NCBI GenBank assembly: GCA_028694995.1
Contig: JAQVJU010000001.1
Coordinates: 80,492 to 144,491 of the forward strand
Direction: 5' to 3'
DNA: 64,000 bases
DNA from: Minisyncoccota bacterium
GTDB lineage: Bacteria; Patescibacteriota; Minisyncoccia; UBA6257
The notes under the pieces were generated by a model. The model was given only the letters and a program-made list of their open reading frames with translations. It was not told where the DNA came from and did no database searches. The translations under genes and the position numbers were made by a program. Each line of letters begins with the position of its first letter. Position 1 is the first letter of the stretch. Shown piece after piece: positions 3,968 through 58,672 of the stretch.

Positions 3968-4068
3968 GATAATTTTATCATATCAATTTTATTCTTATTT
4001 TACCAGAAACTATTTTACAACTATTTACAAATTTGTTATAATAAAAACTACTTAAATAAGCGTTATTT

Positions 4069-4677: not shown

Positions 4678-4682
4678 AAAAC

Positions 4683-5849
4683 ATGTCAATTGAGACTCCA
4701 TCATTTGAAAACCTAAGAAGACAAACAGAGGAAGAAGTAACCGAAAGACTTGAAAAAGAAAGCCTACAAAGGAATATACAAGGAATGGATGAATTAAGAA
4801 GAGAACTAGATCAAGAATACAAAGAAATAGAAGAAAAGGAATACAAAGCTATTGAAGATAGAAATGAGATAGACAAAATCCAACAACAGCATGATAAACT
4901 GTCTTATTTAACTAAGGCCTATGAATTAGAATTAAAAGATATTGAACCAGATAAACCAGAATCAACATTAAAACCAACACCAAAAATAGATAAAGAAAGT
5001 ACACAGGCGCTAATAGCTAAAATAGATAATTGGAGAGAAAAATTAGATCAAGAATATGAAGAAATAGAAAAGAAAGAATACAAAATTCCTGAAGATTTTG
5101 AAGAACAGAAGATAATAGAAAAACAACATCAAAAATTATCTAATTTGGTAAAAAAACTAGAGCAAGAATTAAAAGAAGAGCCAAAAATAAAACTAAAACC
5201 AGAAAGCCCTTTGCCATCTTCAGAGGAAGAGTTTAAAGAATCTGCTGAACTTTTAAAAACGCTTCAAGAAGCTTCTGGGTATGAAGAAATATATGAAACT
5301 GAAGAACAAAACGATAAGAAAAACCAAGAAGAAAGCTTGGCAAAAGATACAAGTAAATCAGAAGCTGTTGAGCAAGAGAAAAAAGACAATGAAATAGAAA
5401 AAATAGAACTAGAGCTAAAAAGAACAGCTTTTAGGCATGGAAAAGACACTGAAAATATATGGCACCCAGATAATGTATGGCAACATATAAAAGACTCTTC
5501 TAATATATTTAATGATCCAGAAAAACAAAAGGATTTGATGGCCTTAAAAGATGATGTTGAAAAAATAGCAGAGGAAACAGATAATGCTTTTGAAAAACAT
5601 CCTCGTGCAATAAATAATGCATTTAAATTTATTAAAAAACAAGGAAAGAAAGGATTTGAAAAGCTTGGAACAATGAGCAAGAAAGGACTTGAAGTAATGG
5701 GGAAAGCAGGAAAAAAAGGAATTGAATCACTCGGAACAATTCTTGGTGTCTTTGCCTCAGGGATATTATTAGTATTAATCCTTTTTATGCTTTTAGAATT
5801 AAAAGCTGTTGATAAATTAGTTGATGCTGGTGGTAAAGTAAAAATTTAA
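4683..5849 (+). CDS. E/K-rich coiled-coil repeat protein with C-terminal TM anchor
   Basis: It contains two ~55 aa tandem repeats (LDQEY[KE]EIE.KEYK...) and three KKG[FLI]E.[LM]G. repeats, plus a C-terminal hydrophobic helix GILLVLILFMLL. It lies 5 nt after clpP and is not ClpX. Confidence 0.5.
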   Translation: MSIETPSFENLRRQTEEEVTERLEKESLQRNIQGMDELRRELDQEYKEIEEKEYKAIEDRNEIDKIQQQHDKLSYLTKAYELELKDIEPDKPESTLKPTPKIDKESTQALIAKIDNWREKLDQEYEEIEKKEYKIPEDFEEQKIIEKQHQKLSNLVKKLEQELKEEPKIKLKPESPLPSSEEEFKESAELLKTLQEASGYEEIYETEEQNDKKNQEESLAKDTSKSEAVEQEKKDNEIEKIELELKRTAFRHGKDTENIWHPDNVWQHIKDSSNIFNDPEKQKDLMALKDDVEKIAEETDNAFEKHPRAINNAFKFIKKQGKKGFEKLGTMSKKGLEVMGKAGKKGIESLGTILGVFASGILLVLILFMLLELKAVDKLVDAGGKVKI

Positions 5850-5894
5850 ACAATTTAGAATATTTAAAGGTCAAAATTTATTTAAAAAAATTAA

Positions 5895-6149
5895 ATGCTA
5901 CAAAATTTTTTAAAAAACTTTCCTCCAGAATTTGAAAAAACAATTACTGATTTATATGATATTATTTTGAAACGTTCTTTAATGAGAGCTTATGAAAATC
6001 TAGAAGATGAAAAAAAGGCAATGATGGCTAAAATCTTTAACTCAGAAAATGACACAGAAAAAAAAGATTTTCTTGAGAACTATTTAGGTGATTTGAATGA
6101 TATTATGTTTGAGGAAACAGAAAAATTACTACTTGAAATAAAAAAATAA
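5895..6149 (+). CDS. Small hypothetical protein (84 aa)
   Basis: ORF only; no recognisable domain. Confidence 0.3.
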   Translation: MLQNFLKNFPPEFEKTITDLYDIILKRSLMRAYENLEDEKKAMMAKIFNSENDTEKKDFLENYLGDLNDIMFEETEKLLLEIKK

Positions 6150-30265: not shown

Positions 30266-32353
30266 ATGGTAAAAAAAATAAAACAAAAACCAACAGAAAA
30301 AAAAGAAATCTTAAATGATAACAATTCATATACGGCTAAGGATATTTATGTTTTAGAAGGATTAGATCCAGTTCGGAAAAGACCAGGAATGTATATTGGC
30401 TCCACTGGAGTTGATGGTCTTCATCATTTAATTTGGGAAGTAGTGGATAATAGCATTGATGAAGCAATGGCTGGGTTTGCCAAGAATATTTTAATTGAAA
30501 TCCTAGCAGAAAATGAAGTGGCTATAACTGATGATGGTAGAGGAATTCCAGTTGATACTCATGAAAAAACTAAAAAATCAGCCTTGGAAATTGTTTTAAC
30601 CACTCTTCATGCTGGAGGTAAGTTTGGAGGCAAATCATATAAAGTGGCTGGGGGTTTGCATGGAGTTGGCGTTTCAGTGGTCAATGCTCTTTCAGAACAT
30701 TTACAAGCAGAGATTTGTCGTGAAGGAGCTTTGTATCAACAAGAATACAGTCGGGGGAAAGCAATAACTAAATTAAAAAAAGTAGGTAAATCCAATCAAG
30801 AAGGAACAAAGATTATCTTTAAGCCAGACCCAGAGATTTTTAAAGATATTAAGTTTGATACAAAGAAAATCTTAGATCATTTGCGCCAGCAAGCTTACTT
30901 AACCCCAGGGACAACAATTAGGTTTAAGGATTATCGTGAAGGAACTAAACTCTCTTCTTATACTTTTCATTTTGAAAGTGGAATCATTGCCTTAATAAGA
31001 TACTTGGCCAGAGACTATAAAAGACTAACTAGAAATGTATTTTATGTTAGTCAAGAGAAAGAAAATATTTTAGTAGAAGTAGCCTTAGCTTATATAGATG
31101 ATAATGAAAGCACTGAAGCGTCTTTTGCTAATAATATTTATACGCCTGAAGGAGGGATGCATTTAACTGGTTTTCGCTCAGCCTTAACAAGAAGTTTAAA
31201 TGATTATGCAAAAGAACAAGAGATTTTTAAAAATGGCAATGGTAGTTTTGCAGGAGAAGATACGCGTGAAGGTTTAATAGCAGTAATTAGCGTTAAATTA
31301 CAAGAACCTCAATTTGAAGGTCAAACTAAAGCCAAATTAGGCAATCCAGAGGTAAGAACTGCAGTAGAGCAGATAGTTAGTGAAAGTTTTAAAGAATTCT
31401 TAGAAATTAACAAAGAAGACGCAAAGAGAATTATTGAAAAATCATTATTAAGCGCTAAAGCGCGGGAAGCGGCAAAAAAAGCAAGGGAGAATATTTTAAG
31501 AAAAGGAATTTTAGAAGGAACAACTTTACCTGGAAAATTAGCTGATTGTATTTCCCGTCGAGCTGAAGAATCAGAATTGTTTATTGTTGAAGGAGATAGT
31601 GCTGGGGGCAGCGCTAAGACTGGAAGAGATCGCAATACGCAAGCGATTCTTCCTTTAAGAGGGAAGATTTTGAATATAGAAAAAAGTCGTTTTGATAGGA
31701 TGATGTCTTCAGAAGAAATAAAGTCTTTAATTGTGGCTTTGGGTACAGCCATAAGTGAAGATTTTAATTTGAATAAACTTCGTTATCATAAGGTTGTTAT
31801 TATGACTGACGCAGATTCTGATGGCGCTCATATCAGGACTCTTTTATTAACGCTTTTCTTTAGATATTTTCGTCCGATTATAGATCATGGTTATCTCTAT
31901 ATTGCTCAACCACCTCTTTATCGTATTCAAAAAGGCAAGGAAGTTCATTATGCTTATAATGAAGCAGAAAAACAGGAAGTTTTAGATAAAATTCAAGGCA
32001 AGACAAAGGAAAAAGAAACTTCAAAATCAAAGGTAAGAAAATTGAAATTAGTTTCTGAAAGCAAAGAAGAATCAATTTTAGCTGTAGAAGAGCCAATGCC
32101 TGAATCAAAAACTGATGAGCTTGCTGAATTAAAAGGAATATCAATCCAACGCTACAAAGGTTTGGGAGAAATGAATCCAGATCAATTATGGGAAACAACC
32201 ATGGATCCAGCACAAAGGGTTTTGAAATTAGTCACCATTGAAAATGCTGAAAATGCTGATAGATTGTTTGATATCTTAATGGGTAAAGAAGTTTTACCAC
32301 GTAAGAAATTTATTCAAGCCTATGCTCAGAAAGTTCAAAACTTGGATGTTTAG
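30266..32353 (+). CDS. gyrB: DNA gyrase subunit B
   Basis: It has the GHKL ATPase, the TOPRIM (EGDSAGG, PLRGKILN) and a GyrB C-terminal domain. The origin-proximal position favours GyrB over ParE. Confidence 0.85.
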   Translation: MVKKIKQKPTEKKEILNDNNSYTAKDIYVLEGLDPVRKRPGMYIGSTGVDGLHHLIWEVVDNSIDEAMAGFAKNILIEILAENEVAITDDGRGIPVDTHEKTKKSALEIVLTTLHAGGKFGGKSYKVAGGLHGVGVSVVNALSEHLQAEICREGALYQQEYSRGKAITKLKKVGKSNQEGTKIIFKPDPEIFKDIKFDTKKILDHLRQQAYLTPGTTIRFKDYREGTKLSSYTFHFESGIIALIRYLARDYKRLTRNVFYVSQEKENILVEVALAYIDDNESTEASFANNIYTPEGGMHLTGFRSALTRSLNDYAKEQEIFKNGNGSFAGEDTREGLIAVISVKLQEPQFEGQTKAKLGNPEVRTAVEQIVSESFKEFLEINKEDAKRIIEKSLLSAKAREAAKKARENILRKGILEGTTLPGKLADCISRRAEESELFIVEGDSAGGSAKTGRDRNTQAILPLRGKILNIEKSRFDRMMSSEEIKSLIVALGTAISEDFNLNKLRYHKVVIMTDADSDGAHIRTLLLTLFFRYFRPIIDHGYLYIAQPPLYRIQKGKEVHYAYNEAEKQEVLDKIQGKTKEKETSKSKVRKLKLVSESKEESILAVEEPMPESKTDELAELKGISIQRYKGLGEMNPDQLWETTMDPAQRVLKLVTIENAENADRLFDILMGKEVLPRKKFIQAYAQKVQNLDV

Positions 32354-32430
32354 AAAATAAATCTAAAAATGCCAAATGAATATATTTGACATTTAGTAAT
32401 AAATTCAGTAATAATGTTATATCAAAAATC

Positions 32431-32958
32431 ATGTTAATATTAAGATTTCAAAAACAAGGAAAAAAGAAAGATTTTGTTTTTCGGATTATAGCGGTTGATT
32501 CTAGGGTGGCAGTAAATAGTGGAAAAGCAAAAGAGATTTTAGGTTGGTATAATCCTAAGACAAAACAAACAGAATTAAAAAAAGAAAGAATTCTTTATTG
32601 GCTTAATCAAGGAGCCCAGGTTTCAGATACCTGTTATAATTTTTTAATCCAAAACAAAGTTATTCAAGGCAAGAAACGGCCAATTAAAATTAGTAAAAAG
32701 AAAGTTAAGAAAGAAGAACCTATTGAAAAAACAGAGCAGGCAAAACAAGAGCAAGTAACAGAAGACATAAAAGAAGAAATTAAATCAGAAACAGAATCTC
32801 AAGAAAAGGTTTTTGAAAAAGAAGAAACTGATTTAGAAACAAAAGAAGAAACAAAAGAAAAATTACCCGAGAAAGAAATAGAAATTAAAACAGAAAAACA
32901 AAGAGAAGAAAAAACAGAAGAGAAAGAAGAAGAGAAAGAAGAAGAGAAAGACTCGTGA
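32431..32958 (+). CDS. rpsP: 30S ribosomal protein S16 with long E/K-rich C-terminal extension
   Basis: The S16 core (FRIIAVDSRVAVNSGKAKEILGWYNP ... ERILYWLNQGAQVS) is present. The ORF track starts at 32386. The start at 32431 (MLILRF) fits the S16 N-terminus better. Confidence 0.75.
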   Translation: MLILRFQKQGKKKDFVFRIIAVDSRVAVNSGKAKEILGWYNPKTKQTELKKERILYWLNQGAQVSDTCYNFLIQNKVIQGKKRPIKISKKKVKKEEPIEKTEQAKQEQVTEDIKEEIKSETESQEKVFEKEETDLETKEETKEKLPEKEIEIKTEKQREEKTEEKEEEKEEEKDS

Positions 32959-33069
32959 AATTAAAATACCTTATAATTTTTTAAATTTTTTCTATTAGAT
33001 TGTCCTTTATTAATTTATTCTTCGATTGAAACTATAGCTAAAATTATTGCTTTCATATTTTTTAAATTT

Positions 33070-33957
33070 TTAATTTAACGTATCTACAAAAAATACTCGT
33101 TGGCAAAAGGCACTAATCCCTATGCCATTAGTAGCATTAGTTTGTATTCTGTAAGTTGGTACGTTGTTTATATAAATAGTGTATCCTACACCTGAATCTT
33201 TTTTAGCCTCGATTAGATGAGCGATTTTTACTTCTTTTTCTATGGGTTTATAAACAACTGTGCCTTTTGAATTAGCGATAATTACATAAAGATCTTCGTC
33301 TTGAGCATCTAAGATAAAATTTAAAAACTTAGATTTATCTTCTATTGGCAAGTTATTAAAAGCCTTTAAGCATAACTTATTAAGTTTTAATTGGTATTGC
33401 TGGCCATTATTTGTTGCCCATTTTAGTAATTTCTTATTTTCTAGAATCTTTTTCTTTAATTCACTTTGTGATATTTGAGGTTTATCTATATATTTTTTTA
33501 GTTTCTGCCACATTTCTTTATACTCAGGTTCAAAATTTATACCTAAATATTTTTTTAAACTTCTCATTCCTAGATTTTTTATTGTTCCAGTTCCGCTTTG
33601 AGCAATGGATTTTATTGAGAATCTTGTAAATTTATGAGTTATGTGTTCAGTGTCCACGTCCGATGTTGTTTTTATGGTGAGTTTTCTGCCTACCCATAAT
33701 ACCTCAATAATTTTTCCTTTTTTTGATATTTCAAAATCCAAAATATCTTTTAGAATTTTAATTAATTTTAATAAATTATCGTTTTGTAATTTTAATCGTT
33801 CTTCCCCGTTCGGTAATTCAAGAACCTGATTAGATAATAAAGCTAAATTTTTACTATAAACAAATCTAATATTGTAAAGATGGCAAATATACTGAACAAT
33901 TAATAATTCAAAATAATCTGCTTGGGCTCTATTTGATTTAACTTTTCTGTTTTTCAT
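33070..33957 (-). CDS. Putative restriction endonuclease partnered with adjacent MTase
   Basis: The 295 aa protein overlaps the 3' end of the MTase gene by 20 nt (operon). It has a possible PD-(D/E)xK-like D..D.EH..HK segment. There is no confident family match from sequence alone. Confidence 0.35.
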   Translation of the reverse strand: MKNRKVKSNRAQADYFELLIVQYICHLYNIRFVYSKNLALLSNQVLELPNGEERLKLQNDNLLKLIKILKDILDFEISKKGKIIEVLWVGRKLTIKTTSDVDTEHITHKFTRFSIKSIAQSGTGTIKNLGMRSLKKYLGINFEPEYKEMWQKLKKYIDKPQISQSELKKKILENKKLLKWATNNGQQYQLKLNKLCLKAFNNLPIEDKSKFLNFILDAQDEDLYVIIANSKGTVVYKPIEKEVKIAHLIEAKKDSGVGYTIYINNVPTYRIQTNATNGIGISAFCQRVFFVDTLN

Positions 33958-35407
33958 ATTTTTTTATATACTTTATGATTATTTTATTAATACTATTTTG
34001 ATATTTTTTAAAGTCAAAGGCATAATTTTTCTTTAAATTATCAATAATAAATTTCGAAGTTTGGGAAATTTGCTTTAAATCCTTTTTAGAAAATTTTAGC
34101 ATTGGTAATTTCCTAATATCTCTTATTTGAATAGAATTAGTATGGTTTATTATTTTGATTAATTCATTATATGGTTTACTGTTTAATAACCCTATAAAGA
34201 AGTAAACAGGATATTTTCTTGGATTTTTTGGGAAAAAGCACATTGCTTTATTACTTTCCCACATTGCTCCTTTATAGGCTAAACGAGCTGAAAGGCTAGA
34301 GCATACTCCTGATATAATGAACCCCTGTTTTTCTTTATATTGTTCCAACCCATTTAGCATTTTATATTTTTTTATTACTTCTTTGTTCCATTTAATAGCA
34401 TATTTGGGTTTTTTATAATACTTGTTATTTCCACCGGTTTTGTGATATATTTTCCAACCATTTCCTTGTTTTATATTTTGGAACAATACAATATTCTTAT
34501 TTTTTTTATTCAATTGAATATTTTCGTCTTTGTAATCTATTAGTGCTAAATATTGCTTATTATTAGTTGTATGCATACCAAGTCCTCCTTCTAAGAAATC
34601 TACTAATTTTTCATTAGCTGAAGTTAGAACATTTAAGAGGTTAATATTATTTTTAAAGTAGAAAACATAATCTGGGTATTTTAAAATATCTAATTGAGAA
34701 ACCATCCAGATTTTTCCTTTATAGTCACCTAATTCGTTTTTTCTACAATCATTAAATTTAATTTTATGATTTTTAGGAAATTTATTTTTAACCAAATGAA
34801 TAATACTGGTTTGGATCATAGTGCCACTATCTTTAAATAAGGATGGGGGACAAAGGGTAATTTCCTTAATAGTGAAATTATTTAGAATCCAATATCTTAA
34901 TTTTTTATGAATTCCAAGAGTTCTATAGGTATCACTTATTATGAAAACAAGTTCACCATTTTGAGATAAAAGATTGCCACATAAGTAAATAAACATAGCA
35001 TATGTATCGTTAACTCCTATTTCCTTATAGATTTTTTTAAGTTTATTTTTATTGTTTTTAATATATAAGCTTTGTTTATTTAAATAGGGTGGATTTCCAA
35101 TAACATGGGTAAAGATAGGTTGAAATGATGATTTTAGATTTGTTTCTAAAAGTGTGTCTTTTACTGTAAATTTTACGCCTAAGTTTTTAATGTTTTTCTC
35201 TACTTGTAGATTTATGTCCCATACTTCAATTTGCTTAGGTTTTAAGAGTTTTTTATTTAATATAGATTTAATAAAAATTCCATCGCCACCACATGGCTCA
35301 AGAAGTTTAGCTTTTTCATTTAATTTATTAAATAAGCTAATCATATAACTTGCTGTGTGGGCAGGAGTATAAAATGCACCCAAATCTTTTTTTAATTGTT
35401 TATTCAT
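33938..35407 (-). CDS. N6-adenine-specific DNA methyltransferase (gamma-class, TaqI/Eco57I-like)
   Basis: It has N-terminal DLGAFYTPAHTASYM (the FxTP motif) and a catalytic NPPY (VIGNPPYLNKQS). Confidence 0.8.
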   Translation of the reverse strand: MNKQLKKDLGAFYTPAHTASYMISLFNKLNEKAKLLEPCGGDGIFIKSILNKKLLKPKQIEVWDINLQVEKNIKNLGVKFTVKDTLLETNLKSSFQPIFTHVIGNPPYLNKQSLYIKNNKNKLKKIYKEIGVNDTYAMFIYLCGNLLSQNGELVFIISDTYRTLGIHKKLRYWILNNFTIKEITLCPPSLFKDSGTMIQTSIIHLVKNKFPKNHKIKFNDCRKNELGDYKGKIWMVSQLDILKYPDYVFYFKNNINLLNVLTSANEKLVDFLEGGLGMHTTNNKQYLALIDYKDENIQLNKKNKNIVLFQNIKQGNGWKIYHKTGGNNKYYKKPKYAIKWNKEVIKKYKMLNGLEQYKEKQGFIISGVCSSLSARLAYKGAMWESNKAMCFFPKNPRKYPVYFFIGLLNSKPYNELIKIINHTNSIQIRDIRKLPMLKFSKKDLKQISQTSKFIIDNLKKNYAFDFKKYQNSINKIIIKYIKKYEKQKS

Positions 35408-35416
35408 AAATACCTG

Positions 35417-35593
35417 CTATTTTATTTCTAATTTGTTTAAAAATTTATTAAATTCTTTTTTACCTATTCTAAATTCCTTACTCATTTTATAAGCCTTTAA
35501 TTTTCTTGCTTTAATATAGCGGTAAATAGTCATTATATTTACCCTTAACTTATCGGCTAATTCTTGGGCCGTATAATATTCTTGTTGTTGCAT
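35417..35593 (-). CDS. Excisionase/AlpA-family helix-turn-helix DNA-binding protein (possible R-M controller or Xis)
   Basis: Manual translation gives MQQQEYYTAQELADKLRVNIMTIYRYIKARKLKAYKMSKEFRIGKKEFNKFLNKLEIK (58 aa). It fits the Xis-type HTH consensus (..eaAelLgvs..TiyrlikeGklpavkiG.r.rI...dl..fl). It is below the ORF-track size cutoff. Confidence 0.6.
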   Translation of the reverse strand: MQQQEYYTAQELADKLRVNIMTIYRYIKARKLKAYKMSKEFRIGKKEFNKFLNKLEIK

Positions 35594-35824
35594 ACAGTTG
35601 TATTATACTTTACAATTCTTTACATAGCAAAGTAGATAATTCTATACAGATATGTTTTAAAACATTGCCTAGGCCTTAATCCAGATGTAACATTTCTTTT
35701 AACTAATAAAGTTTTATTTAATATTTAACATTGACTTTATCTTAATTTAGTGATATAGTATACACATTGAGTTGTGAGTTTTTTTGTTCTTTGAAATTTA
35801 ATAAATAAGAAAGGAGAGGTAATC

Positions 35825-36151
35825 ATGTTAATTAAGAAAAGACTAATAAAAAGCAATGGAATAAGGTTTTCAGCCCAAATCAACGGGAAGGAAGTGGGTA
35901 GAGCCTATCTCTATGTTCTCTTTAATGATTTACACCCTAAGCCTTTTGGGTTGTTAGAAGATGTGTTTGTTGAAGAAGAGTTTAGAGGTAAAGGAATAGG
36001 AACATCTTTAACCAAGGCTGTAATAGAAGAAGCTAAGCCTTTGTGTTATAAACTAATTGCTACTAGCAGGTATTATAGGCCTGCAGTGCATCAGTTGTAT
36101 CAAGGGCTAGGGTTTATGCATTGGGGGAAAGAATTTAGAATAGATTTTTAA
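35825..36151 (+). CDS. GNAT-family N-acetyltransferase (small)
   Basis: It has acetyl-CoA binding motif A (EDVFVEEEFRGKGIGTSLTKAVIEEA). A strong RBS AAAGGAGAGG lies 6 nt upstream. Confidence 0.7.
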   Translation: MLIKKRLIKSNGIRFSAQINGKEVGRAYLYVLFNDLHPKPFGLLEDVFVEEEFRGKGIGTSLTKAVIEEAKPLCYKLIATSRYYRPAVHQLYQGLGFMHWGKEFRIDF

Positions 36152-36169
36152 AAACAAAAGGAGGTGGCA

Positions 36170-36658
36170 GTGGTGAGAACAAGAAGACAAAAGTTTTTAA
36201 TAGTTTTGTTTGCAGTATTGCTATTTATAGTTTTGCAAGCAGAAGCCAAAGGGATAGAAGAATACAAGATAAGCTTTACATTTTGCGCCAATGACAATAA
36301 TTGCGTAGTAAGGCTTAAGGATCCTTTTGGAGAATTGTCTTATAATGAAACACTAGAGGTAGCTCCTTTATTAATAGATGGAACAGACTGGGATATTTTT
36401 CTTCCTTTAAAAGACTTGGTAAGAATGATGGGGGGATTTATTCGTTGGTATCCTAGGAATAAACAGGTTGAGGTAATTTTTCAAGGAGACCAAGTGTTTT
36501 GGGTTTTTTCTTTAATTGATAATCCTAAAATTCTTGTTTTTCATGGGAAAATAATGATTTCTACAAAATTTGTTGTTGAAAACTTAATTCCAAGCGAGGT
36601 GTTCAGGAACAAGGCTTTAAAGACTATAATTTTAACCTGGCCTCTTTCTCTAGATTAA
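36170..36658 (+). CDS. Exported protein with copper-amine-oxidase-N-terminal-like (Firmicutes-type) domain
   Basis: It has a signal peptide and segments (VAPLLIDGTDWDIFLPLKDLVRMMGGFIRWYPRNKQVEVIF) that resemble the Cu-amine-oxidase N-domain repeat. The RBS is AAAGGAGG, and the GTG start was chosen by spacing (the track starts at 36164). Confidence 0.4.
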   Translation: MVRTRRQKFLIVLFAVLLFIVLQAEAKGIEEYKISFTFCANDNNCVVRLKDPFGELSYNETLEVAPLLIDGTDWDIFLPLKDLVRMMGGFIRWYPRNKQVEVIFQGDQVFWVFSLIDNPKILVFHGKIMISTKFVVENLIPSEVFRNKALKTIILTWPLSLD

Positions 36659-36676
36659 AAGAAAGGAGAGAAAGAA

Positions 36677-36847
36677 ATGGAAAAGAAAACAAAAGATAAA
36701 TGTGTAATTTGTGGAATTGAAACCAGATATAAAAACAATGTACATATTCAGCTAAGAGAAAATTATATCGAAGGTGGAGGACAATTATGTCAGGATTGTT
36801 GGGAGGATTTATATAAAAAGAAAAAATATAAAAAAGAAAGGAGGTAA
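36677..36847 (+). CDS. Small CxxC...CxxC zinc-ribbon protein (56 aa), paralog of next gene
   Basis: Manual translation gives MEKKTKDKCVICGIETRYKNNVHIQLRENYIEGGGQLCQDCWEDLYKKKKYKKERR. The RBS is GAAAGGAGAG. Confidence 0.5.
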   Translation: MEKKTKDKCVICGIETRYKNNVHIQLRENYIEGGGQLCQDCWEDLYKKKKYKKERR

Positions 36848-36851
36848 AAGA

Positions 36852-37061
36852 ATGGACACAAAAGTTAAATGTTCTGCCTGTGGCGGTAAAACAGCTTATA
36901 ATTCATTGAATAGAAAAAGGTTCGTTGAAGGATGGGGGCAACTATGTGTAAGTTGTTGGAGGGACTTGGGAGAGAGTTACCCTTTCCCAATGTTTCTTGA
37001 AAGAAAGAACTTCTCCAAAAAAAAGAAAATTTTCTGGGGGAGGAAAAATAAAAGGAGGTAA
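36852..37061 (+). CDS. Small CxxC...CxxC zinc-ribbon protein (69 aa)
   Basis: The protein is MDTKVKCSACGGKTAYNSLNRKRFVEGWGQLCVSCWRDLGE.... The RBS is AAAGGAGGT. The ORF track's longer N-terminus (36774) overlaps the previous gene and lacks an RBS. Confidence 0.5.
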   Translation: MDTKVKCSACGGKTAYNSLNRKRFVEGWGQLCVSCWRDLGESYPFPMFLERKNFSKKKKIFWGRKNKRR

Positions 37062-37072
37062 AGATAAAACAA

Positions 37073-37104
37073 CAAGGAGGATAAAAATATCCTCCTTTTT
37101 ATTT
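37073..37104 (+). terminator. Intrinsic terminator closing the island operon
   Basis: A hairpin is followed by TTTTTA. Confidence 0.6.
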
Positions 37105-37145
37105 AATTTGTTTTTATTATATCGGTGTAGTAATATAATGAAAAG

Positions 37146-38405
37146 ATGGATATTTTAGATGATTTACAATACAGAGGATTAATCTATCAGGTTAGTAATT
37201 TAGAAGGATTAAAGAAAGAGCTTAAAAAAAGGCGACTTGTTTTGTATTGTGGATTTGATCCAACAGCAGATAGTCTTCAGGTTGGGAATTTGGTGCCTTT
37301 ATTGACTTTAAAAAGGTTTCAAGAAGCAGGGCATCAAATAATTGTTTTGATAGGCGGTGGAACTGGTTTGATTGGTGATCCAAGTGGGAAAAAAGATGAA
37401 AGAATTTTAAATCCTGAAAAAACAGTTAAAAAATGGGGTTCTTTGTTTAAAAAACAAATAGAAGGATTAATAGATTTTAAGAGAAAAGATAATCCGGCTT
37501 TAATAGATGACAATTACAATTGGTTAGCTAAGATAAAAACCATAGATTTCTTAAGAGATATTGGTAAACATTTTACTATCCCTTATATGTTAGCTAAAGA
37601 TGCAGTAAAGATGCGATTAGAAAGCGGAATTTCTTTTACAGAATTCAATTACATGGTTTTACAGGCTTATGATTTTTTGTGTTTGTTTAAAAAATACAAT
37701 TGTCAGATGCAGATAGGAGGCAGTGATCAATGGGGTAATATTACTGCAGGAATAGATTTGATACGGAAAAAAGAAGAAAAAGAGGTTTTTGGATTAACCG
37801 TGCCCTTGGTTTCTAAAGCCAGTGGAGAAAAATTTGGGAAAACAGAAACAGGCACTATTTGGTTAGATGGTCAAAAAACTTCTCCTTATCAGTTTTATCA
37901 ATTTTGGGTAAATACTGATGATAGAGATGTGATACAGTTTTTGAAATATTTTACCTTTTTGTCTAAAGAAGAAATTAATAATTTAGAAAAAAGTTTTCAA
38001 AAAAATCCAGAAAAAAGAGAACCGCAAAAAGCTTTGGCCAAAGAAGTTACCGCTTTGGTTCATGGAAAAGAAATGTCTTTAATGGCAGAAATGATTTCTC
38101 AAAAATTATTTTACAATGATTTTAAGAGTTTTTCTCAAAAAGAATTAGAAATGATTTTTAAGAATATTCCCTTAACTGTAATTGAAAAAATCAAGAACAT
38201 TGATTTAATTGAACTTTTAGTTAAAGCCAAGGTTTGTTCTTCAAAAAGACAGGCGAGGGAAGATATTAAAAATGGAATAATATTTATTAATGACAAGGCT
38301 TTTAAAGATAGTGAGATGCTAATTAGGCAAGGAGATTGTTTTTATGGTAAATATTTAATAGTTAAGAAAGGTAAGAAAAATTATTACTTTGTCTTGTGGA
38401 AGTAA
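37146..38405 (+). CDS. tyrS: Tyrosine--tRNA ligase
   Basis: It has a class I HIGH-region variant (CGFDPTADSLQVGNLVPL), a KMSKS-like KFGKTE and a C-terminal S4-like domain. Confidence 0.9.
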   Translation: MDILDDLQYRGLIYQVSNLEGLKKELKKRRLVLYCGFDPTADSLQVGNLVPLLTLKRFQEAGHQIIVLIGGGTGLIGDPSGKKDERILNPEKTVKKWGSLFKKQIEGLIDFKRKDNPALIDDNYNWLAKIKTIDFLRDIGKHFTIPYMLAKDAVKMRLESGISFTEFNYMVLQAYDFLCLFKKYNCQMQIGGSDQWGNITAGIDLIRKKEEKEVFGLTVPLVSKASGEKFGKTETGTIWLDGQKTSPYQFYQFWVNTDDRDVIQFLKYFTFLSKEEINNLEKSFQKNPEKREPQKALAKEVTALVHGKEMSLMAEMISQKLFYNDFKSFSQKELEMIFKNIPLTVIEKIKNIDLIELLVKAKVCSSKRQAREDIKNGIIFINDKAFKDSEMLIRQGDCFYGKYLIVKKGKKNYYFVLWK

Positions 38406-38484
38406 GAAAAATTTGTTAAGCTCTTTTCATTGACTTCAGCTTTAATAAGTTGAATAAAATAAACAACAAATAAATAATAAAAAT

Positions 38485-39450
38485 ATGAAGAAAATAAATA
38501 TTTCTTTTCTCTTGATTATTCTAATGGTGGTTGCTTTTTTAATTGGCTATGGCAGTAAAAATGGAATTTCAGCCAAATTATTTAATAATAAAAAGGCAGA
38601 AACCTTGGCGCAAAAAGCTGTTGATTATATCAACTTTAATTTTTTTGGCTTAACAGAAGAAGAAGGCGGAGCAGTTTTAGTTTCTGTTGTTGAAGAAAGC
38701 GGAGTTTATAAATTCAAAATGAAGATTGATGATATAGAATATGATTCTTTTGTGACTAAAGATGGGAAAATTCTTTTTCCTGAAGGAATCACAATGCAAG
38801 AAGAAGAACAAAAAGTAGCTCAAACTTGTGAAGATTTAAATAAAAAAGAACAACCAGTTTTAGAAGCCTTTGTTGTTAGCTATTGCCCCTTTGGCACTCA
38901 AATGTTGAGAATTTTAAATGAAATAGTGAAAAATATTCCTGAATTAAGCAATTATATTAAGGTTGCCTATATGGGAGAAATTCAAAATGGGCAAATAGTA
39001 GCCATGCATGGAGATGAAGAAGCTGAAGAAAATTTAAGGCAGATTTGTATTAGAGATGAACAAAAAGACAAATATTGGCAATATGTTGATTGTTTTCTTA
39101 AAGAAGGCGAAACAGGAGAATGCTTGGCATTAGCTTCTGTAGATACCAATGTTTTAGAACAATGTATGCAAGACGAACTTAAAGGAATAAAATATGCTCA
39201 AGGAGATTTTAACAATCAAGATAAATATGAAGTGACTGGTTCACCAACATTGATTCTTAATGAAGAGAATGTTAGTGAATTTGATTTTGGTGGCCGAACA
39301 GCAGAAGCGGTAAAAACAGTAATCTGTTGTGGTTTTAATAAGGCGCCAGAATTTTGTTCTCAAGTATTAACAGAAGAACAAGCAGCAGCAGGGTTTTCTC
39401 CTTCTTATGAAGATCCAGATTTAATAGGGGGTAATGCTAATTGTGAATAA
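38485..39450 (+). CDS. Exported thioredoxin-fold (DsbA-like) protein, Cys-rich C-terminus
   Basis: It has a signal/anchor, an FVVSYCPFGTQ thioredoxin-like active-site region, and CCGFNKAPEFC near the C-terminus. The family assignment is tentative. Confidence 0.35.
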   Translation: MKKINISFLLIILMVVAFLIGYGSKNGISAKLFNNKKAETLAQKAVDYINFNFFGLTEEEGGAVLVSVVEESGVYKFKMKIDDIEYDSFVTKDGKILFPEGITMQEEEQKVAQTCEDLNKKEQPVLEAFVVSYCPFGTQMLRILNEIVKNIPELSNYIKVAYMGEIQNGQIVAMHGDEEAEENLRQICIRDEQKDKYWQYVDCFLKEGETGECLALASVDTNVLEQCMQDELKGIKYAQGDFNNQDKYEVTGSPTLILNEENVSEFDFGGRTAEAVKTVICCGFNKAPEFCSQVLTEEQAAAGFSPSYEDPDLIGGNANCE

Positions 39451-39455
39451 AAAAC

Positions 39456-39695
39456 ATGACAATTAAAATTTATTCAACTCCAAATTGTCCCTGGTGTGTT
39501 GCGGCTAAAGATTTTTTTAAATCAATAGATATGCCTTTTGAAGATATAGATGTTAGTCTTGATGAAAAAGCTGCTCAGTTAATGATAGAGAAAAGCGGTC
39601 AAACAGGGGTTCCAGTGATAGAAATAGGAGATAAGATTATTATTGGTTTTAATAAGCCATTAATAGAAGAAATACTGGCACTTAATGAATCATAA
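39456..39695 (+). CDS. Glutaredoxin/NrdH-like redoxin
   Basis: It has the glutaredoxin signature KIYSTPNCPWCVAAKDFF ... GVPVIEIGDKIIIGF. Confidence 0.7.
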   Translation: MTIKIYSTPNCPWCVAAKDFFKSIDMPFEDIDVSLDEKAAQLMIEKSGQTGVPVIEIGDKIIIGFNKPLIEEILALNES

Positions 39696-39704
39696 AATTA
39701 AGAA

Positions 39705-39733
39705 AACAGCGCTGGGTAAAGCGCTGTTTTTTG
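39705..39733 (+). terminator. Intrinsic terminator
   Basis: ACAGCGCT-gggtaa-AGCGCTGT is followed by TTTTTT. Confidence 0.65.
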
Positions 39734-39765
39734 AAGGTTAACTTGTTTATGTTATAATTAGGTAG

Positions 39766-40449
39766 ATGATAAGAAAATCTTATTACCCTCTAATTTTAAT
39801 TTTTGTGATCATGGGATTGCTTATGTGGAGTCTTCCTTTAACTCTTATAGCGCCTAAGAAAAATTCAGAAAATCTTTTAGATGAAGAATCTTTTAAAAAA
39901 AATTTATTAGAAACAATGGAAGAAAAAAAGAAAATTTTAATGGTAGTTTCTTTTGATGATTTTCGGGACGAAGAATATTTTATTCCCAAAGAGATATTTG
40001 AACAAGCGGGTTTTGAAGTGGAAACAACCAGTTTGCAAAAAGGAATAGCCAAGGGTATTTTAGGCGGTGAGGCTGTTATTGATTTGATAGTTGAAGATGT
40101 TCAAGTAATAAAATATGAAGCAGTGGTTTTTTGCGGAGGTTCTGGAATGGCTGAAAAATTAGATAATGAAGTGTTTCAAAACTTAGCAAAAGATTTTAAT
40201 AAAGAAAATAAATTAATAACAGCAATTTGCGTGGCTCCAGCTCTTTTAGCTAAGGCAGGGATTCTTAAAGATAAAGAGGCAACAGTTTGGTCATCAGCTT
40301 TAAACAAAGATTACATTGAAATTTTAAAAGAAAAGGGGACGACTTATAAAGATGAATCAGTGGTAATTAGCGGACAAGTTGTTACGGCTAATGGACCTGA
40401 AGCAGCTAAAAAGTTTGGAGAAACAATTATTAGATTATTAAAAAATTAA
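39766..40449 (+). CDS. DJ-1/PfpI-family protein with N-terminal TM anchor
   Basis: It has the nucleophile elbow AICVAPALLAKAGIL and the PfpI fold size. Confidence 0.65.
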   Translation: MIRKSYYPLILIFVIMGLLMWSLPLTLIAPKKNSENLLDEESFKKNLLETMEEKKKILMVVSFDDFRDEEYFIPKEIFEQAGFEVETTSLQKGIAKGILGGEAVIDLIVEDVQVIKYEAVVFCGGSGMAEKLDNEVFQNLAKDFNKENKLITAICVAPALLAKAGILKDKEATVWSSALNKDYIEILKEKGTTYKDESVVISGQVVTANGPEAAKKFGETIIRLLKN

Positions 40450-54018: not shown

Positions 54019-54090
54019 GCCGAGGTAGCTCAACGGCAGAGCAACGGTTTTGTAAACCGTAGGTTGGAGGTTCAAATCCTCTCCTCGGCT
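54019..54090 (+). tRNA. tRNA-Thr (anticodon UGU)
   Basis: GCCGAGGTAGCTCAACGGCAGAGCAACGGTTTTGTAAACCGTAGGTTGGAGGTTCAAATCCTCTCCTCGGCT forms a cloverleaf with an anticodon stem ACGGT/ACCGT. Confidence 0.85.
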
Positions 54091-54098
54091 CTTAATCT

Positions 54099-54185
54099 GG
54101 GCAGGTGGCAGAGTGGACAATTGCACGAGACTGTAAATCTCGCGGCCTTAGGCCTCCATAGGTTCGAATCCTATCCTGCCCACCA
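54099..54185 (+). tRNA. tRNA-Tyr (anticodon GUA), long variable arm, CCA encoded
   Basis: GGGCAGGTGGCAGAGTGG...GACTGTAAATCTCG...GGTTCGAATCCTATCCTGCCCACCA. Confidence 0.85.
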
Positions 54186-54193
54186 GAACCTAA

Positions 54194-54265
54194 GCCGAAG
54201 TAGTTCAGTGGCAGAACGCTTTCTTGGTAAGAAAGAGGTCGTGGGTTCAATTCCCACCTTCGGCT
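54194..54265 (+). tRNA. tRNA-Thr (anticodon GGU)
   Basis: GCCGAAGTAGTTCAGTGGCAGAACGCTTTCTTGGTAAGAAAGAGGTCGTGGGTTCAATTCCCACCTTCGGCT. Confidence 0.85.
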
Positions 54266-54295
54266 CAGAACAATAATAAATAGCAAAAATCAGTC

Positions 54296-54454
54296 ATGAA
54301 AAAAGAACATATTGTTAAATTACAATGCACAGAATGCAAACAAATAAATTATTATACTCGACGTAATAAGAAATTAGTTGAGCGTAAGTTAGAATTTAAA
54401 AAATATTGCCCTTGGTGTCGTAAACATACAATTCATAAAGAAGGCAAAAAATAA
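54296..54454 (+). CDS. rpmG: 50S ribosomal protein L33
   Basis: Manual translation gives [52 protein letters not shown] (52 aa, zinc ribbon). It is below the ORF-track cutoff. Confidence 0.85.
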
Positions 54455-54480
54455 CAATATTTGATAAAATACATTCTAGA

Positions 54481-54553
54481 AGGGGCGTAGCTCAATTGGC
54501 AGAGTAGCGGTCTCCAAAACCGTTGGTTACAGGTTCGAGTCCTGTCGCCCCTG
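54481..54553 (+). tRNA. tRNA-Trp (anticodon CCA)
   Basis: AGGGGCGTAGCTCAATTGGCAGAGTAGCGGTCTCCAAAACCGTTGGTTACAGGTTCGAGTCCTGTCGCCCCTG has an anticodon loop CTCCAAA. Confidence 0.8.
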
Positions 54554-56761: not shown

Positions 56762-57196
56762 ATGGAAAATAAGATTAAGTTTTTTAATGATTTAAAAGAT
56801 TTGCCAAAAAAAGAAGAAATTCTTGAAATGAAGGTTGCAAAATGGATAAAATGGAGATATGATTTTGTGCCTGCTACAAGAGAAGGAAATAACTTCAGTG
56901 TATTAAACTTTGGACATGTGGAACAAGGGTTTCAAGAGATGGAACCAAATATTGTTGCAATTTTGGACCCAAAATACTGCTGGTTCGTTAGATTTTTCAT
57001 CGTCGAAGATTATGATGTTATAAGTTTAATCAATCTAAGCGATAAAGAAAATTGGACTATGGAAATATATGGTCGGGCGTATGTTGACTGTTTAACAAGA
57101 TTGGCAAAAAAGATGGCAAGAGATTTTAATGTTTCAATATCTTGTCATCTAGTCAAAGAAAAACCAGGATTTCTAAGTATTCCATACGTATGGTAA
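56762..57196 (+). CDS. Hypothetical protein (144 aa) in repeat-flanked cassette
   Basis: It has a strong RBS AAGAAAGGAGAG. No recognisable domain is present. Confidence 0.4.
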   Translation: MENKIKFFNDLKDLPKKEEILEMKVAKWIKWRYDFVPATREGNNFSVLNFGHVEQGFQEMEPNIVAILDPKYCWFVRFFIVEDYDVISLINLSDKENWTMEIYGRAYVDCLTRLAKKMARDFNVSISCHLVKEKPGFLSIPYVW

Positions 57197-57226
57197 AAAC
57201 AAAAGTTAAAATTTCTTTATCAATAT

Positions 57227-57261
57227 GCCCCAACAAAATTATTAATAGTTGGGGCTTTTTT
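57227..57261 (+). terminator. Intrinsic terminator
   Basis: GCCCCAAC-14 nt loop-TTGGGGC is followed by TTTTTT. Confidence 0.6.
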
Positions 57262-57281
57262 ATATTAAACAGGTTTAAGCA

Positions 57282-57297
57282 TTATCTATTAGGCTCT
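57282..57297. repeat. 16-bp direct repeat TTATCTATTAGGCTCT copy 2
   Basis: See copy 1. Confidence 0.6.
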
Positions 57298-57625
57298 ACT
57301 CATAAAATCGCTCTTAAAGGCGATTTTATGATTCAAATGAAGTTTATATAAAAAATAATGTTTAGGTTAAATAAAAGCTTTTAAAAATAACTTATCCACT
57401 ATTGACAATGCTCTTGCTTGCTATAAAATTTATATCAGAGGATTAATGGGTTGGTCTTCCATTTCCTTAGTAACTATAAAAAGAGTTTGAATTGTTTTTA
57501 ACAGTTTAAAATCTTTAAAAAATATGGCCAAAAAAAAGAAAGGCGGCAAAAAAAAGAAATAGTCGCTTAATGGAAATTGTTTAATCTGGCGTCAGTATTT
57601 ATTACTGGCGCTTTTTATTTATCAA

Positions 57626-57654
57626 TTGACTAATTTAGATTATAGTGTTATTAT
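57626..57654 (+). promoter_or_regulatory. Sigma70-like promoter copy B (TTGACT-N17-TATTAT)
   Basis: It is a paralog of the promoter at 56305. Together with the leader, about 80% identity extends over ~100 nt. Confidence 0.5.
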
Positions 57655-57734
57655 ATGAATACCTTTTAGGATAAAAATAATCTTAAAAAGAAAGAACTTT
57701 GACAAAAAAATATGAAAGAAAGGAGGTGATTTAG

Positions 57735-58271
57735 GTGAAAAAAGACAAGGAAAAAGAATTGCTTGATAAGACAGAAGTGTATGAAAGGAATATAAAAAAG
57801 ATTAAAAGCCATAGTTCTCTAGAAAGTGCTTACATAATTTTCCCTTATAATCAAAAAGAGCTTTTAGTGCCAGATAAGGATTTTTGGCTTGATATTACAA
57901 ACAAGATGAGCTTAAGGGATTTAATTATTTGCTCTCCAAATGCTTTGATAAATAGTCAACCAGAGATTGTCGAAAATCAATGTTTGATTACTGCAAATGA
58001 ATTTACTTTTAAATATTGGGAAGAAGTAAAGACTTACTTAATGATTGCAGGAATTACTAACTTGATAATTATTAGTTCTGATATACATCTTCCCAGGATT
58101 TTACGAGATTTTTCCTTTGTGTTTAAGAATAAAAGAGAAAATTTGCATGTGGGAATTAAAACAATCAGGATTGCAAATTCTTTTTGGAAAATGGTTTATA
58201 AGATTAGAGAGAGAATTGTTGCCTTACTTCCATTAAATTTTTATAAATATTTAGGAGAAGAAAGGATGTAG
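57735..58271 (+). CDS. DUF218 (YdcF/SanA/ElyC)-like domain protein
   Basis: ISSDIHLPRI resembles the DUF218 S..HM.RA motif. It has a GTG start with RBS AAGGAGGTGA. Confidence 0.35.
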   Translation: MKKDKEKELLDKTEVYERNIKKIKSHSSLESAYIIFPYNQKELLVPDKDFWLDITNKMSLRDLIICSPNALINSQPEIVENQCLITANEFTFKYWEEVKTYLMIAGITNLIIISSDIHLPRILRDFSFVFKNKRENLHVGIKTIRIANSFWKMVYKIRERIVALLPLNFYKYLGEERM

Positions 58272-58273
58272 AG

Positions 58274-58672
58274 ATGTTAAAGAATCATTTGGAAAGAAAT
58301 ATATTGAGAAATCGGCCGTATTTTGGAGGGCTAGAAAGTGATCAGGTTAGAAATATTCCTGATCTAAATCACTGCGACGAGGGAGAATGTATTCTAACTT
58401 TTAATATCCATTCAGGGGTAGGTGGATTATTTAAAGTTATTAGTTGTCCGTTTAAGGGTCAAGATGGTTATTGGCGTATTTTCTTAGAGGAACAAGGTCC
58501 TTATTGCAGAGTGCATGACATTCAAGTTAGATTAGATGAATATAGTGTAGTTTGTTATCCCAACCTTGAGTGGGAAAAAGAGTGGTGTTTTTTAAAAACA
58601 AGCATTACTGCTTTCAAAGAATTAAAGAAATTAAGAATACACAGGGAAGATTATCTTCCAGTGTATTATTAA
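58274..58672 (+). CDS. Cys-rich hypothetical protein (132 aa)
   Basis: It has HCDEGEC, ISCPF, PYCRVHD and VVCYP. It is translationally coupled to the upstream gene. Confidence 0.35.
   Translation: MLKNHLERNILRNRPYFGGLESDQVRNIPDLNHCDEGECILTFNIHSGVGGLFKVISCPFKGQDGYWRIFLEEQGPYCRVHDIQVRLDEYSVVCYPNLEWEKEWCFLKTSITAFKELKKLRIHREDYLPVYY

Follow-up and report, generated by a model that had tools for sequence, protein, structure and literature searches.

A probable horizontally acquired Type II restriction-modification cassette in place of a surface-protein locus between rpsP and tyrS in a Minisyncoccota bacterium

Between rpsP and tyrS of the 64-kb window (the whole stretch of DNA analysed here), a segment of approximately 2.9 kb with approximate ends (32795-35727) is probably a horizontally acquired Type II restriction-modification (R-M) cassette, and this degree of confidence applies jointly to its acquisition, its replacement of native genes, its identity as an R-M system and the mode of control that we propose for it. 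The minus-strand operon is predicted to encode, from its first gene onwards, a 58-aa DNA-binding protein of the HTH_17 excisionase family (35417..35593), a 489-aa gamma-class N6-adenine DNA methyltransferase (MTase; 33938..35407) and a 295-aa putative Type II restriction endonuclease (33070..33957), the last two genes sharing 20 nt (33938-33957). All seven open reading frames given for this locus by an earlier, sequence-only reading were found at its coordinates, and the minus-strand operon that it described, including the 58-aa and 489-aa products and the 20-nt overlap, was borne out by the HTH_17 match and the MTase motifs. Judging from sequence comparison, this operon is a horizontally acquired module, since it is absent from three relatives, has homologues across lineages and lies beside a decayed serine recombinase gene.

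The three relatives (L134, L090 and L010) lack the R-M operon at the same site. L134 matches the window at 97.4% nucleotide identity over the left flank and 95.1% over the right, and its gene order at the site is rpsP, a 179-aa gene, a 1138-aa LTD surface-protein gene and GNAT; in L090 and L010 LTD is likewise followed by GNAT, with no R-M genes. Given that L134 is free of R-M genes and 95-97% identical to the window on both flanks, only the segment from about 32795 to 35727 appears to have been acquired and two genes to have been replaced, such that the cassette would have taken the place of the 179-aa and 1138-aa LTD genes between rpsP and the GNAT-tyrS block. The segment 35728-37100 is present in all three relatives. 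The sequence-only reading had proposed a single horizontally acquired island between rpsP and tyrS and had named the same genes at this position in orthologous genomes among the things that would refute it; comparison with the relatives upholds the R-M operon as acquired but returns the plus-strand GNAT, p164 and Zn-ribbon genes, which all three relatives carry, as native by synteny.

The left joint is imprecise and sits in a low-complexity region: in the alignment against L134, the 97% homology stops at approximately 32795, within the KE-rich tail of rpsP (stop codon at 32958), and the divergent tail, which falls in a junction zone delimited by blastn and alignment at 32795..32997, may represent either a recombination joint or fast repeat evolution. 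On the right, 87 nt of junction DNA (35641..35727, limits from blastn) resembles neither the element family described below nor the relatives; it contains a 14-bp palindrome, ATGTTTTAAAACAT, matched no RNA family and showed nothing unusual in its predicted folding. It had also been suggested that remnants of attachment sites might be sought at both borders, and no att-like repeats were found. A mobility gene does lie at the border, as a serine recombinase remnant. Horizontally acquired R-M systems in Paceibacteria have been documented, and genomic islands that carry R-M genes have been described in Patescibacteria (PMC12455944). Our locus resembles such islands, and the defence hotspots of integrative elements, in that conserved genes of the element enclose interchangeable defence genes, that recombinases lie at the margin and that presence varies between strains. 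It differs in that only an internal fragment is present, with no working recombinase and no att sites, and in that the cassette replaced native genes rather than inserting beside a tRNA gene. The swap is ordinary strain-level gene traffic. With both flanks at 95-97% identity, it is a clean natural case, in an ultra-small CPR bacterium, in which an R-M cassette has taken the place of a surface-protein locus.

The remnant (32998..33056, minus strand) corresponds to the decayed 5' end of a large serine recombinase gene, about 20 codons long, that was detected by tblastn and blastn and is 85-88% identical in nucleotides to intact recombinases over 44-47 nt. It reads MKAIILAIVSIEE*INKGQS where intact recombinases read MKAIILARVSTEEQKEAGNS; in the conserved RVST stretch, which we take to be the region holding the catalytic serine, both R and T are mutated, and a Gln codon has become a stop. 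The 64 kb of the window held no other recombinase. Intact large serine recombinases come directly after the R-M cargo in three related loci (L124, L126 and L128). On these sequence grounds the cassette comes from the interior of a mobile element, one of a family whose design is a conserved promoter and HTH_17 gene, exchangeable R-M cargo and a large serine recombinase, in that order. WOR-3 and several CPR groups have endonuclease homologues that share 60-80% identity, each with gene surroundings of its own, and at 60-90% identity the endonuclease and HTH families together extend to other CPR lineages, WOR-3, Atribacteria and Defluviitoga.

Two other histories of the locus have to be weighed. 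One is that the R-M operon is ancestral here and was lost from L134, L090 and L010, with the LTD locus put in its place. In its favour, the codon usage of the R-M genes cannot be told apart from that of the host (GC3 of 0.203 against a background of 0.201, z=0.1; synonymous-codon score, z=0.13). Nevertheless, the LTD-GNAT order is common to three relatives spanning 70-98% protein identity and is therefore the more parsimonious ancestral state, and the cassette has mobile-element flanks (a promoter/HTH block found across phyla and the recombinase remnant), such that we regard ancestry as highly improbable. The other, the earlier proposal, treats the whole of 33070-37130 as a single Firmicutes-like island that includes GNAT, p164 and the Zn-ribbon genes, and was argued from strong Shine-Dalgarno (SD) sequences and a higher local GC. 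The plus-strand genes do have strong SDs and a raised GC3 (0.298 against 0.202, z=4.4) in a genome that is otherwise SD-less and low in GC3. The bulk GC did not turn out as claimed, however: it is 0.25-0.27 in the R-M half, against approximately 0.31 for the window, and 0.34 in the plus-strand half, which is within the range of the window. Against a single island, (i) L134 (95% nucleotide identity), L090 and L010, all of them without R-M genes, have the plus-strand operon together with its promoter and SDs at the syntenic position upstream of tyrS; (ii) homology to the relatives resumes exactly at the -35 box of the operon's promoter (35731..35759, plus strand; TTGACT-17-TATAGT with TG); and (iii) this GNAT family is one typically found in CPR and DPANN, the named homologues being from Parcubacteria, Paceibacterota, Magasanikbacteria and Nanoarchaeota, with no Firmicutes among the named matches listed. 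A common foreign origin is on this evidence barely credible. As the synteny in three R-M-free relatives indicates, GNAT, p164 and the Zn-ribbon genes form a separate native operon and not imported cargo. The windowed GC and codon-usage comparison that had been proposed as a check on the island thus fails to mark the acquired DNA: the R-M cassette is host-like in codon usage and the native operon is the atypical segment. Composition-based island calling can therefore mislead in these genomes, in which acquired DNA looks native and a native operon looks foreign.

As regards the identity of the system as R-M, the MTase matches Pfam Eco57I (5e-16) and N6_Mtase (1.6e-12) and, over its full length, the PADLOC model MTase_II (3.3e-37); it carries GAFYTP as well as EPCGGDG and NPPY, which supply the AdoMet-binding and catalytic (D/N)PP(Y/F) motifs of a Type II system, and it is 57-65% identical to the MTases that are paired with homologues of the endonuclease. 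Its family and motifs predict that it methylates adenine at N6 in a probably short site. Palindrome ratios in the window were 0.54 for GATC, 0.43 for GTAC and 0.70 for TGCA, a depletion that is not diagnostic in 64 kb.

The 295-aa protein and ten remote relatives gave no match in Pfam or NCBIfam, and a profile search against PDB sequences was negative. The AF2 model of the protein reached pLDDT 87, HinP1I and MspI are its best fold matches, and in its predicted fold it goes with the MspI/HinP1I-like PD-(D/E)XK endonucleases without belonging to their sequence family. HhaI, HinP1I and MspI have catalytic patterns of the form SD-Xn-(E/Q/N)xK. The candidate pattern here, E17, S99-D100 and S114-x-K116, resembles these, and E17, D100, S114 and K116 are kept even in homologues with only 22% identity. 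The genes for modification and restriction are separate and adjacent, as in Type II systems; the endonuclease family always adjoins a DNA MTase (a gamma N6A enzyme in most loci, an N6_N4 enzyme in L003), and the pairing is kept in nine of the nine related loci examined. On the basis of the fold matches, the conserved residues and the constant MTase neighbour, we read the protein as a putative MspI/HinP1I-like PD-(D/E)XK restriction endonuclease, which would cut the site of the MTase when it is unmethylated. It is similar in size to the monomeric Type IIP enzymes MspI, HinP1I and HhaI, and like them it has an N-terminal helix with a conserved Glu and, as a candidate catalytic pattern, S-D ... 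x-K (SD-X11-EAK in HhaI; PMC7026639). Unlike them it has no detectable sequence similarity to that group, has Ser as the middle residue of the pattern, is approximately 40-50 residues longer, with a long helical insert (residues 131-216), and has an N6-adenine rather than an m5C MTase as its partner. Given that partner, the target must contain A and would not be GCGC or CCGG. A family without a Pfam or NCBIfam model, with a predicted MspI/HinP1I-like fold and an adenine-methylase partner, is a candidate for a new specificity.

With regard to control, a consensus scan placed the R-M promoter at 35602..35630 on the minus strand (-35 TTGCTA, 35630-35625; 17-nt spacer; -10 TATAAT, 35607-35602), with the ATG 8 nt beyond the -10 box, and the invariance of a block within it across six loci agrees with this assignment. 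The spacer holds two direct TGTAAAG repeats (35624-35618 and 35614-35608) that form a putative operator; the conserved element at HTH promoters is TGTAAAG-N3-TGTAAAG fused to the -10 box, and six independent loci with different cargo share the 23-nt promoter/repeat block TGTAAA-NN-ATTGTAAAGTATAAT without variation. The three genes would be transcribed from this promoter as an essentially leaderless mRNA, translation of the endonuclease would be coupled to the end of the MTase gene through the overlap, and the HTH_17 protein, as the sequence suggests, may bind both repeats and repress its own operon. Such autorepression would let the genes be expressed when they enter a naive cell and keep them at a low steady level later. 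The sequence-only reading had offered a different operator, the palindrome TTGTA-N8-TACAA placed at 35594-35611. That palindrome exists, 4 nt away at 35598-35615, but it is not the conserved element, and its class does not exceed chance: for inverted repeats of 5+5 nt with 4-12-nt spacers, 231 nt of this DNA hold about 4.6 on average, and 96% of random stretches contain at least one. Related loci, moreover, do not keep its second arm.

More broadly, we raise, as a tentative possibility, that the HTH_17 gene and the 23-nt block form a portable, recombinase-independent front end that drives and autoregulates interchangeable restriction systems of every major type. This would cover Type I-like, II, ISP and III systems and stand-alone nucleases within one cross-phylum element family (CPR, Atribacteria, and Thermotogae in the form of Defluviitoga), with the front end on one side of the cargo and, on the other, a large serine recombinase that is conserved. 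Consistent with this idea, the HTH protein has more than 900 homologues at 74-90% identity across phyla, keeps about 80% identity between six loci whose cargo is unrelated, the putative recognition helix being invariant, and has homologues encoded directly upstream of MTase or nuclease genes from Type I-like, II, ISP and III systems; in L125 its place is taken by a LexA-like DNA-binding domain that forms one protein with the MTase. There is precedent for such control in the C-protein Type II systems (PvuII, AhdI and Esp1396I), in which a small Xre-type controller with palindromic C-box operators is encoded ahead of the endonuclease. The likenesses are a small HTH gene heading the operon, a putative site overlapping its own promoter, a leaderless-type transcript and a presumed role in timing or limiting R-M expression after transfer. 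The differences are that the regulator here is HTH_17 (MerR/excisionase-like; Pfam 3.3e-10, against only 0.088 for HTH_3) and not Xre-type (HTH_3/HTH_31), that a direct repeat between the -35 and -10 boxes, and not a palindromic C-box, is the putative operator, that the HTH gene precedes the MTase gene and not the endonuclease gene, and that the same regulator and promoter also front Type I-like, ISP and III systems. If the front-end reading is true, this would be a controller class distinct from the classical C proteins, and the conserved HTH-plus-promoter unit, if a regulator, would help to predict defence cargo in metagenomic data and would itself be of use as a compact control element.

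The assignments as endonuclease and as regulator each have a competitor. The 295-aa protein might be another MTase-associated DNA-binding or accessory protein and not a nuclease, the MTase then being an orphan; its want of a sequence-family assignment, a Foldseek search that found nothing and the atypical Ser in place of Glu, Gln or Asn would fit this. We think it improbable, given strict adjacency to MTases of two unrelated classes and invariant E, D and K at positions typical of PD-(D/E)XK enzymes. Somewhat less improbable, while still unlikely, is that the HTH_17 protein serves the parent element as its recombination directionality factor (excisionase) and is here a co-transcribed relic, not an R-M regulator. 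Its fold is indeed that of the excisionase family (TIGR01764, 'excise', 6.2e-10, 39.3 bits against a cutoff of 28.8; PHROG label 'excisionase and transcriptional regulator'), so that the earlier 'Xis-like' label was right as to family; in L126 and L130 its gene comes immediately after a tyrosine integrase, and in L124, L126 and L128 the cargo behind it is followed by a serine recombinase. Its constant partner, on the other hand, is not a single type of recombinase but the downstream MTase or nuclease gene, which begins 1-45 nt away in seven of seven contexts. Related loci carry recombinases of two unrelated kinds, the same approximately 80%-identical HTH protein accompanying both; the window and L133 are without any intact recombinase, the window having neither a partner recombinase nor att sites. 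The conserved repeats, furthermore, lie inside the HTH gene's own promoter spacer, and four independent assemblies have an intact, 100% identical HTH gene despite the decayed recombinase. We favor the regulator over the excisionase for these reasons.

The order of an HTH_17 gene and an N6A MTase gene also recalls mad1-mad2 of the MADS defence system (PADLOC mad1, 6.7e-11; mad2, 1.3e-17). MADS was rejected: NCBIfam MAD1 scored 27.5 where the cutoff is 80, none of the further mad genes is present, the native flanks enclose just three genes, and the MTase fits the plain Type II model far better.

The native operon (35825..37097, plus strand) comprises GNAT (35825-36151), the gene for the exported p164 (about 36170-36658), Zn1 (36677-36847), Zn2 (36852-37061) and a terminator found in the consensus scan (37074-37097). 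GNAT and the pair of Zn-ribbon miniproteins were as first described, Zn1 and Zn2 being paralogues with 49% identity; the likeness of p164 to a Cu-amine-oxidase N domain is sub-threshold (Cu_amine_oxidN1, 19.8 bits against a Pfam threshold of 24.2). Strong SDs do precede all four genes, although GGAGG, which had been ascribed to each, is found only at p164 and Zn2, with AGGAG at GNAT and Zn1. They are almost absent elsewhere, in line with the earlier reading: 54 housekeeping-type genes have A/T-only leaders, and the only other strong SDs form one small cluster (56.7-58.7 kb). An SD-less lineage thus keeps a conserved operon, of a mini-GNAT and basic Zn-ribbon miniproteins, under what appears to be strong Shine-Dalgarno control.

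Comparison with close relatives indicates that the acquired DNA is confined to the R-M operon. The metagenome contig L134, whose GNAT is 98% identical to that of the window, aligns with the window at 97.4% over 32179-32796 and at 95.1% over 35728-39996; between these flanks it carries 4.3 kb with a 179-aa gene and the 1138-aa LTD gene, whereas the window carries 2.9 kb with the R-M operon. In two further loci, L090 (TyrS 94% identical) and L010 (TyrS 70%), the LTD gene likewise lies directly upstream of GNAT and R-M is absent. Given that all three share this arrangement, LTD-GNAT is the probable ancestral state, in which two genes would have been replaced by R-M. No LTD gene was found anywhere in the 64-kb window, and its displacement would mean that a large surface protein was lost at the very locus where the R-M cassette sits. 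In L134 (892-4869) the 179-aa product is membrane-anchored and the 1138-aa LTD-domain product is a surface protein.

The sequence-only reading had proposed a horizontally acquired island between rpsP and tyrS made up of this operon and divergent "strong-RBS cargo genes". Its description of the locus was largely accurate, apart from a statement on GC and a palindrome, and every ORF that it listed is present; the R-M operon is indeed acquired, but the supposed cargo is a native, conserved operon. The event itself is of an ordinary kind, a Type II R-M system gained by one strain, and horizontally acquired R-M systems have been documented before in Patescibacteria (PMC12455944).

On the right, homology picks up again precisely at the -35 box in the GNAT-operon promoter (35731, TTGACT-17-TATAGT), and on the left it ends at about 32795, inside the repetitive tail of rpsP. 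The S16 protein has a long KE-rich C-terminal extension (rpsP 3' end, 32795-32958); the last ~54 codons are wholly unlike those of the otherwise 97%-identical L134, and 12-nt tandem repeats occupy 32904-32951. Att-like repeats, direct or inverted, were sought around the cassette, and only AT-rich chance matches came up. Between the cassette promoter and native DNA lie 87 nt (35641-35727) that match nothing examined; within them TGCCTAGGCC follows a perfect 14-bp palindrome, ATGTTTTAAAACAT. This segment may be what is left of a junction or att site; scanning the junction DNA for tRNAs and RNA families, and folding it, gave nothing.

The R-M operon is a decayed piece of a modular element that carries defence genes. 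Immediately beyond the REase stop codon, 33056-32998 reads MKAIILAIVSIEE*INKGQS, the beginning, now decayed, of a large serine recombinase. Intact recombinase genes starting MKAIILARVSTEEQ hold the same place after R-M cargo in the related loci L124, L126 and L128, and the remnant is 85-88% identical at the nucleotide level to those of L126 and L128 over 44-47 nt. A similarly decayed recombinase start follows an M-R pair that lacks the HTH gene in another genome (L001, 6889-6950; REase 74% identical), apparently with the same CAA-to-TAA stop; on the strength of this matching decay, the truncated cassette may have spread after losing its recombinase. At the other end of the operon, the 58-aa HTH_17/excisionase-family protein (35417-35593, minus strand; Pfam 3.3e-10, TIGR01764 6.2e-10) belongs to a very large and tight family, with more than 900 proteins at 74-90% identity from CPR, Atribacteria and Defluviitoga. 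In 7 of 7 contexts its gene is followed, 1-45 nt downstream, by an MTase or nuclease gene, and the system differs each time: this Type II pair (the window and L124), Type I-like M+S (L126), a Type ISP enzyme (L128), Type III Mod-Res (L130), and a VRR_NUC nuclease and a small N6_N4 MTase with nucleases (L133). In the last of these, a Nealsonbacteria chromosome (4001-6147), two HTH_17 copies lie 1 kb apart, one preceding the VRR_NUC nuclease and the other the small N6_N4 MTase with its nuclease-like genes. A tyrosine integrase and SpoVG lie upstream in L126 and L130. Neither the REase family nor the 22-mer promoter block matched IMG/VR viral contigs, and neither REase nor HTH matched phage or plasmid record collections. 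MADS membership of the HTH and MTase genes was considered and rejected.

The MTase (489 aa; 33938-35407, minus strand) is a gamma-class N6-adenine enzyme with motifs GAFYTP, EPCGGDG and NPPY, matching Pfam Eco57I and N6_Mtase and, over its full length, the PADLOC Type II MTase (3.3e-37). The 295-aa ORF (33070-33957, minus strand) overlaps its gene by 20 nt and had no match in Pfam, NCBIfam, PADLOC, PHROGs, or phmmer and profile searches of PDB; Pfam scans of ten remote relatives were also empty. The name under which this protein is recorded points to a Candidatus Pacebacteria MAG. Its family is compact, with 219 proteins at 60-80% identity and 84 clusters at 50% identity among 1.84 billion representatives, and its members come from several CPR groups and WOR-3. 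A DNA MTase gene lies immediately upstream in every context read; at most loci it encodes a gamma N6A MTase, but in WOR-3 the product is an 811-aa N6_N4 enzyme unrelated to these. AlphaFold, given 30 homologues, produced a confident model (pLDDT 87, pTM 0.81), and in an alignment reaching down to 22% identity E17, D100 and K116 do not vary, while conservation of S114 is at least 90%. The S99-D100 ... S114-x-K116 arrangement resembles the SD-Xn-(E/Q/N)xK sites of the HhaI/HinP1I/MspI group; HhaI, whose own motif is SD-X11-EAK, has a structure close to those of HinP1I and MspI (PMC7026639). Because a Foldseek search against PDB gave no significant match, we regard the fold assignment as moderate, not strong. 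Taking together the family, the constant MTase adjacency, the model and the conserved residues, we call the two proteins a Type II R-M pair, with a predicted target that contains A. A REase family without a Pfam or NCBIfam model is worth following up.

Several 4-bp palindromes are depleted across the window relative to Markov expectation (GATC 0.54, GTAC 0.43, GGCC 0.62, TGCA 0.70, TATA 0.69), consistent with past or present restriction pressure; no depleted 4-mer in the window could be assigned to this R-M or to any system.

The R-M operon promoter, which a consensus scan recovers independently, consists of a -35 box TTGCTA (35630-35625), a 17-nt spacer formed by two direct TGTAAAG repeats 10 nt apart, and a -10 box TATAAT (35607-35602). 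The ATG lies only 8 nt further on, so the R-M mRNA should be essentially leaderless. A block, TGTAAA-NN-ATTGTAAAGTATAAT, is invariant in six independent loci with unconserved flanks. It had been proposed that a palindrome beside the HTH gene could be its operator. That palindrome, which in fact lies at 35598-35615, overlaps both the -10 box and the second TGTAAAG repeat; the right arm shows no conservation, and comparable palindromes are commonplace in this AT-rich DNA. Nor is TTGTAAAG enriched in the window (6 observed against 5.6 expected), so the case for an operator is one of conservation across loci.

We favor the possibility that HTH_17 autoregulates its own operon. This is suggested by the putative operator inside the promoter spacer, by an invariant putative recognition helix and by the constant linkage of the HTH to a downstream MTase whatever recombinase is present. 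The excisionase-family match would also suit a recombination directionality factor rather than an R-M regulator, which we consider unlikely in view of that linkage. With regard to autoregulation, in the related locus L125 a LexA-like domain fused to the MTase stands in for the HTH, which argues that R-M systems of this family would need some DNA-binding control at that position. MTases encoded at L125 (3154-4995) and L124 (5474-7009) are fused to an N-terminal LexA DNA-binding domain and an S24 peptidase, one being a gamma N6A enzyme paired with a REase homologue and the other Dam-type D12; this suggests SOS-like, self-cleaving control of methylases. Our literature search on HTH_17 or excisionase-type R-M regulators found no description of this arrangement, and an ultra-conserved HTH/promoter front end common to many R-M types is worth following up.

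The plus-strand operon comprises GNAT (108 aa), p164 (exported, ~162 aa, with a Cu_amine_oxidN1 match under threshold) and two paralogous Zn-ribbon miniprotein genes, Zn1 (36677-36847) and Zn2 (36852-37061; products 49% identical), followed by a hairpin terminator at 37074-37097. Higher GC had been offered as a sign of its import, in a window of ~31% GC. The composition argues the opposite: R-M codon usage cannot be told apart from that of 54 background genes (GC3 0.203, z=0.1, where the background has 0.201; z=0.13 for the synonymous-codon score), its low bulk GC stemming from codon positions 1 and 2. It is the native plus-strand operon that deviates, with a GC3 of 0.298 (z=4.4) that none of 5000 resamples reached and an over-use of AGG and GGG.

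Strong SDs are rare in the window, as had been stated: the leaders of 54 housekeeping-type genes are A/T-only, and at no position between -25 and -1 does G occur in more than 8 of them; strong SDs occur only at the four plus-strand operon genes and three orphan ORFs at 56.7-58.7 kb. The counterpart operons of L134, L090 and L010 bear the same SDs and their neighbouring genes do not, so conservation of the SDs extends to relatives with 70% TyrS identity. In 24 other metagenome loci the GNAT homologues, 50-60% identical, have no SD, and named GNAT relatives come from Parcubacteria, Paceibacterota, Magasanikbacteria and Nanoarchaeota. For these reasons we do not regard the SDs as evidence of recent import. 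The anti-SD motif is reported absent in about half of Parcubacteria (PMC9297842); the 16S gene, and with it the 16S rRNA 3' end, is not within the window. An SD-led operon inside an SD-less genome is worth following up.

The two clusters with AGGAGG-type SDs also have raised GC3 (35825-37061, 0.298; 56762-58672, 0.257; rest 0.202), the second, that of the orphan ORFs, coming ~2 kb after a cluster of five tRNA genes (54019-54553). GGAGG occurs 46 times on the plus strand of the 64 kb, and eight of these occurrences fall within 36160-37076. Zn1 is a tandem extra copy (L090 has one copy, L134 two). Both Zn genes end AGG AGG TAA (Arg-Arg-stop), that of Zn1 doubling as the SD of Zn2 and that of Zn2 preceding the terminator by a few bases; the terminator stem is itself an SD/anti-SD-like pairing. 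Among the SD-led genes of L010, a 95-aa ORF is duplicated (1600-1887 and 3846-4133), each copy adjoining an RNase_T-type exonuclease gene, and the region looks like a repeated mobile segment.
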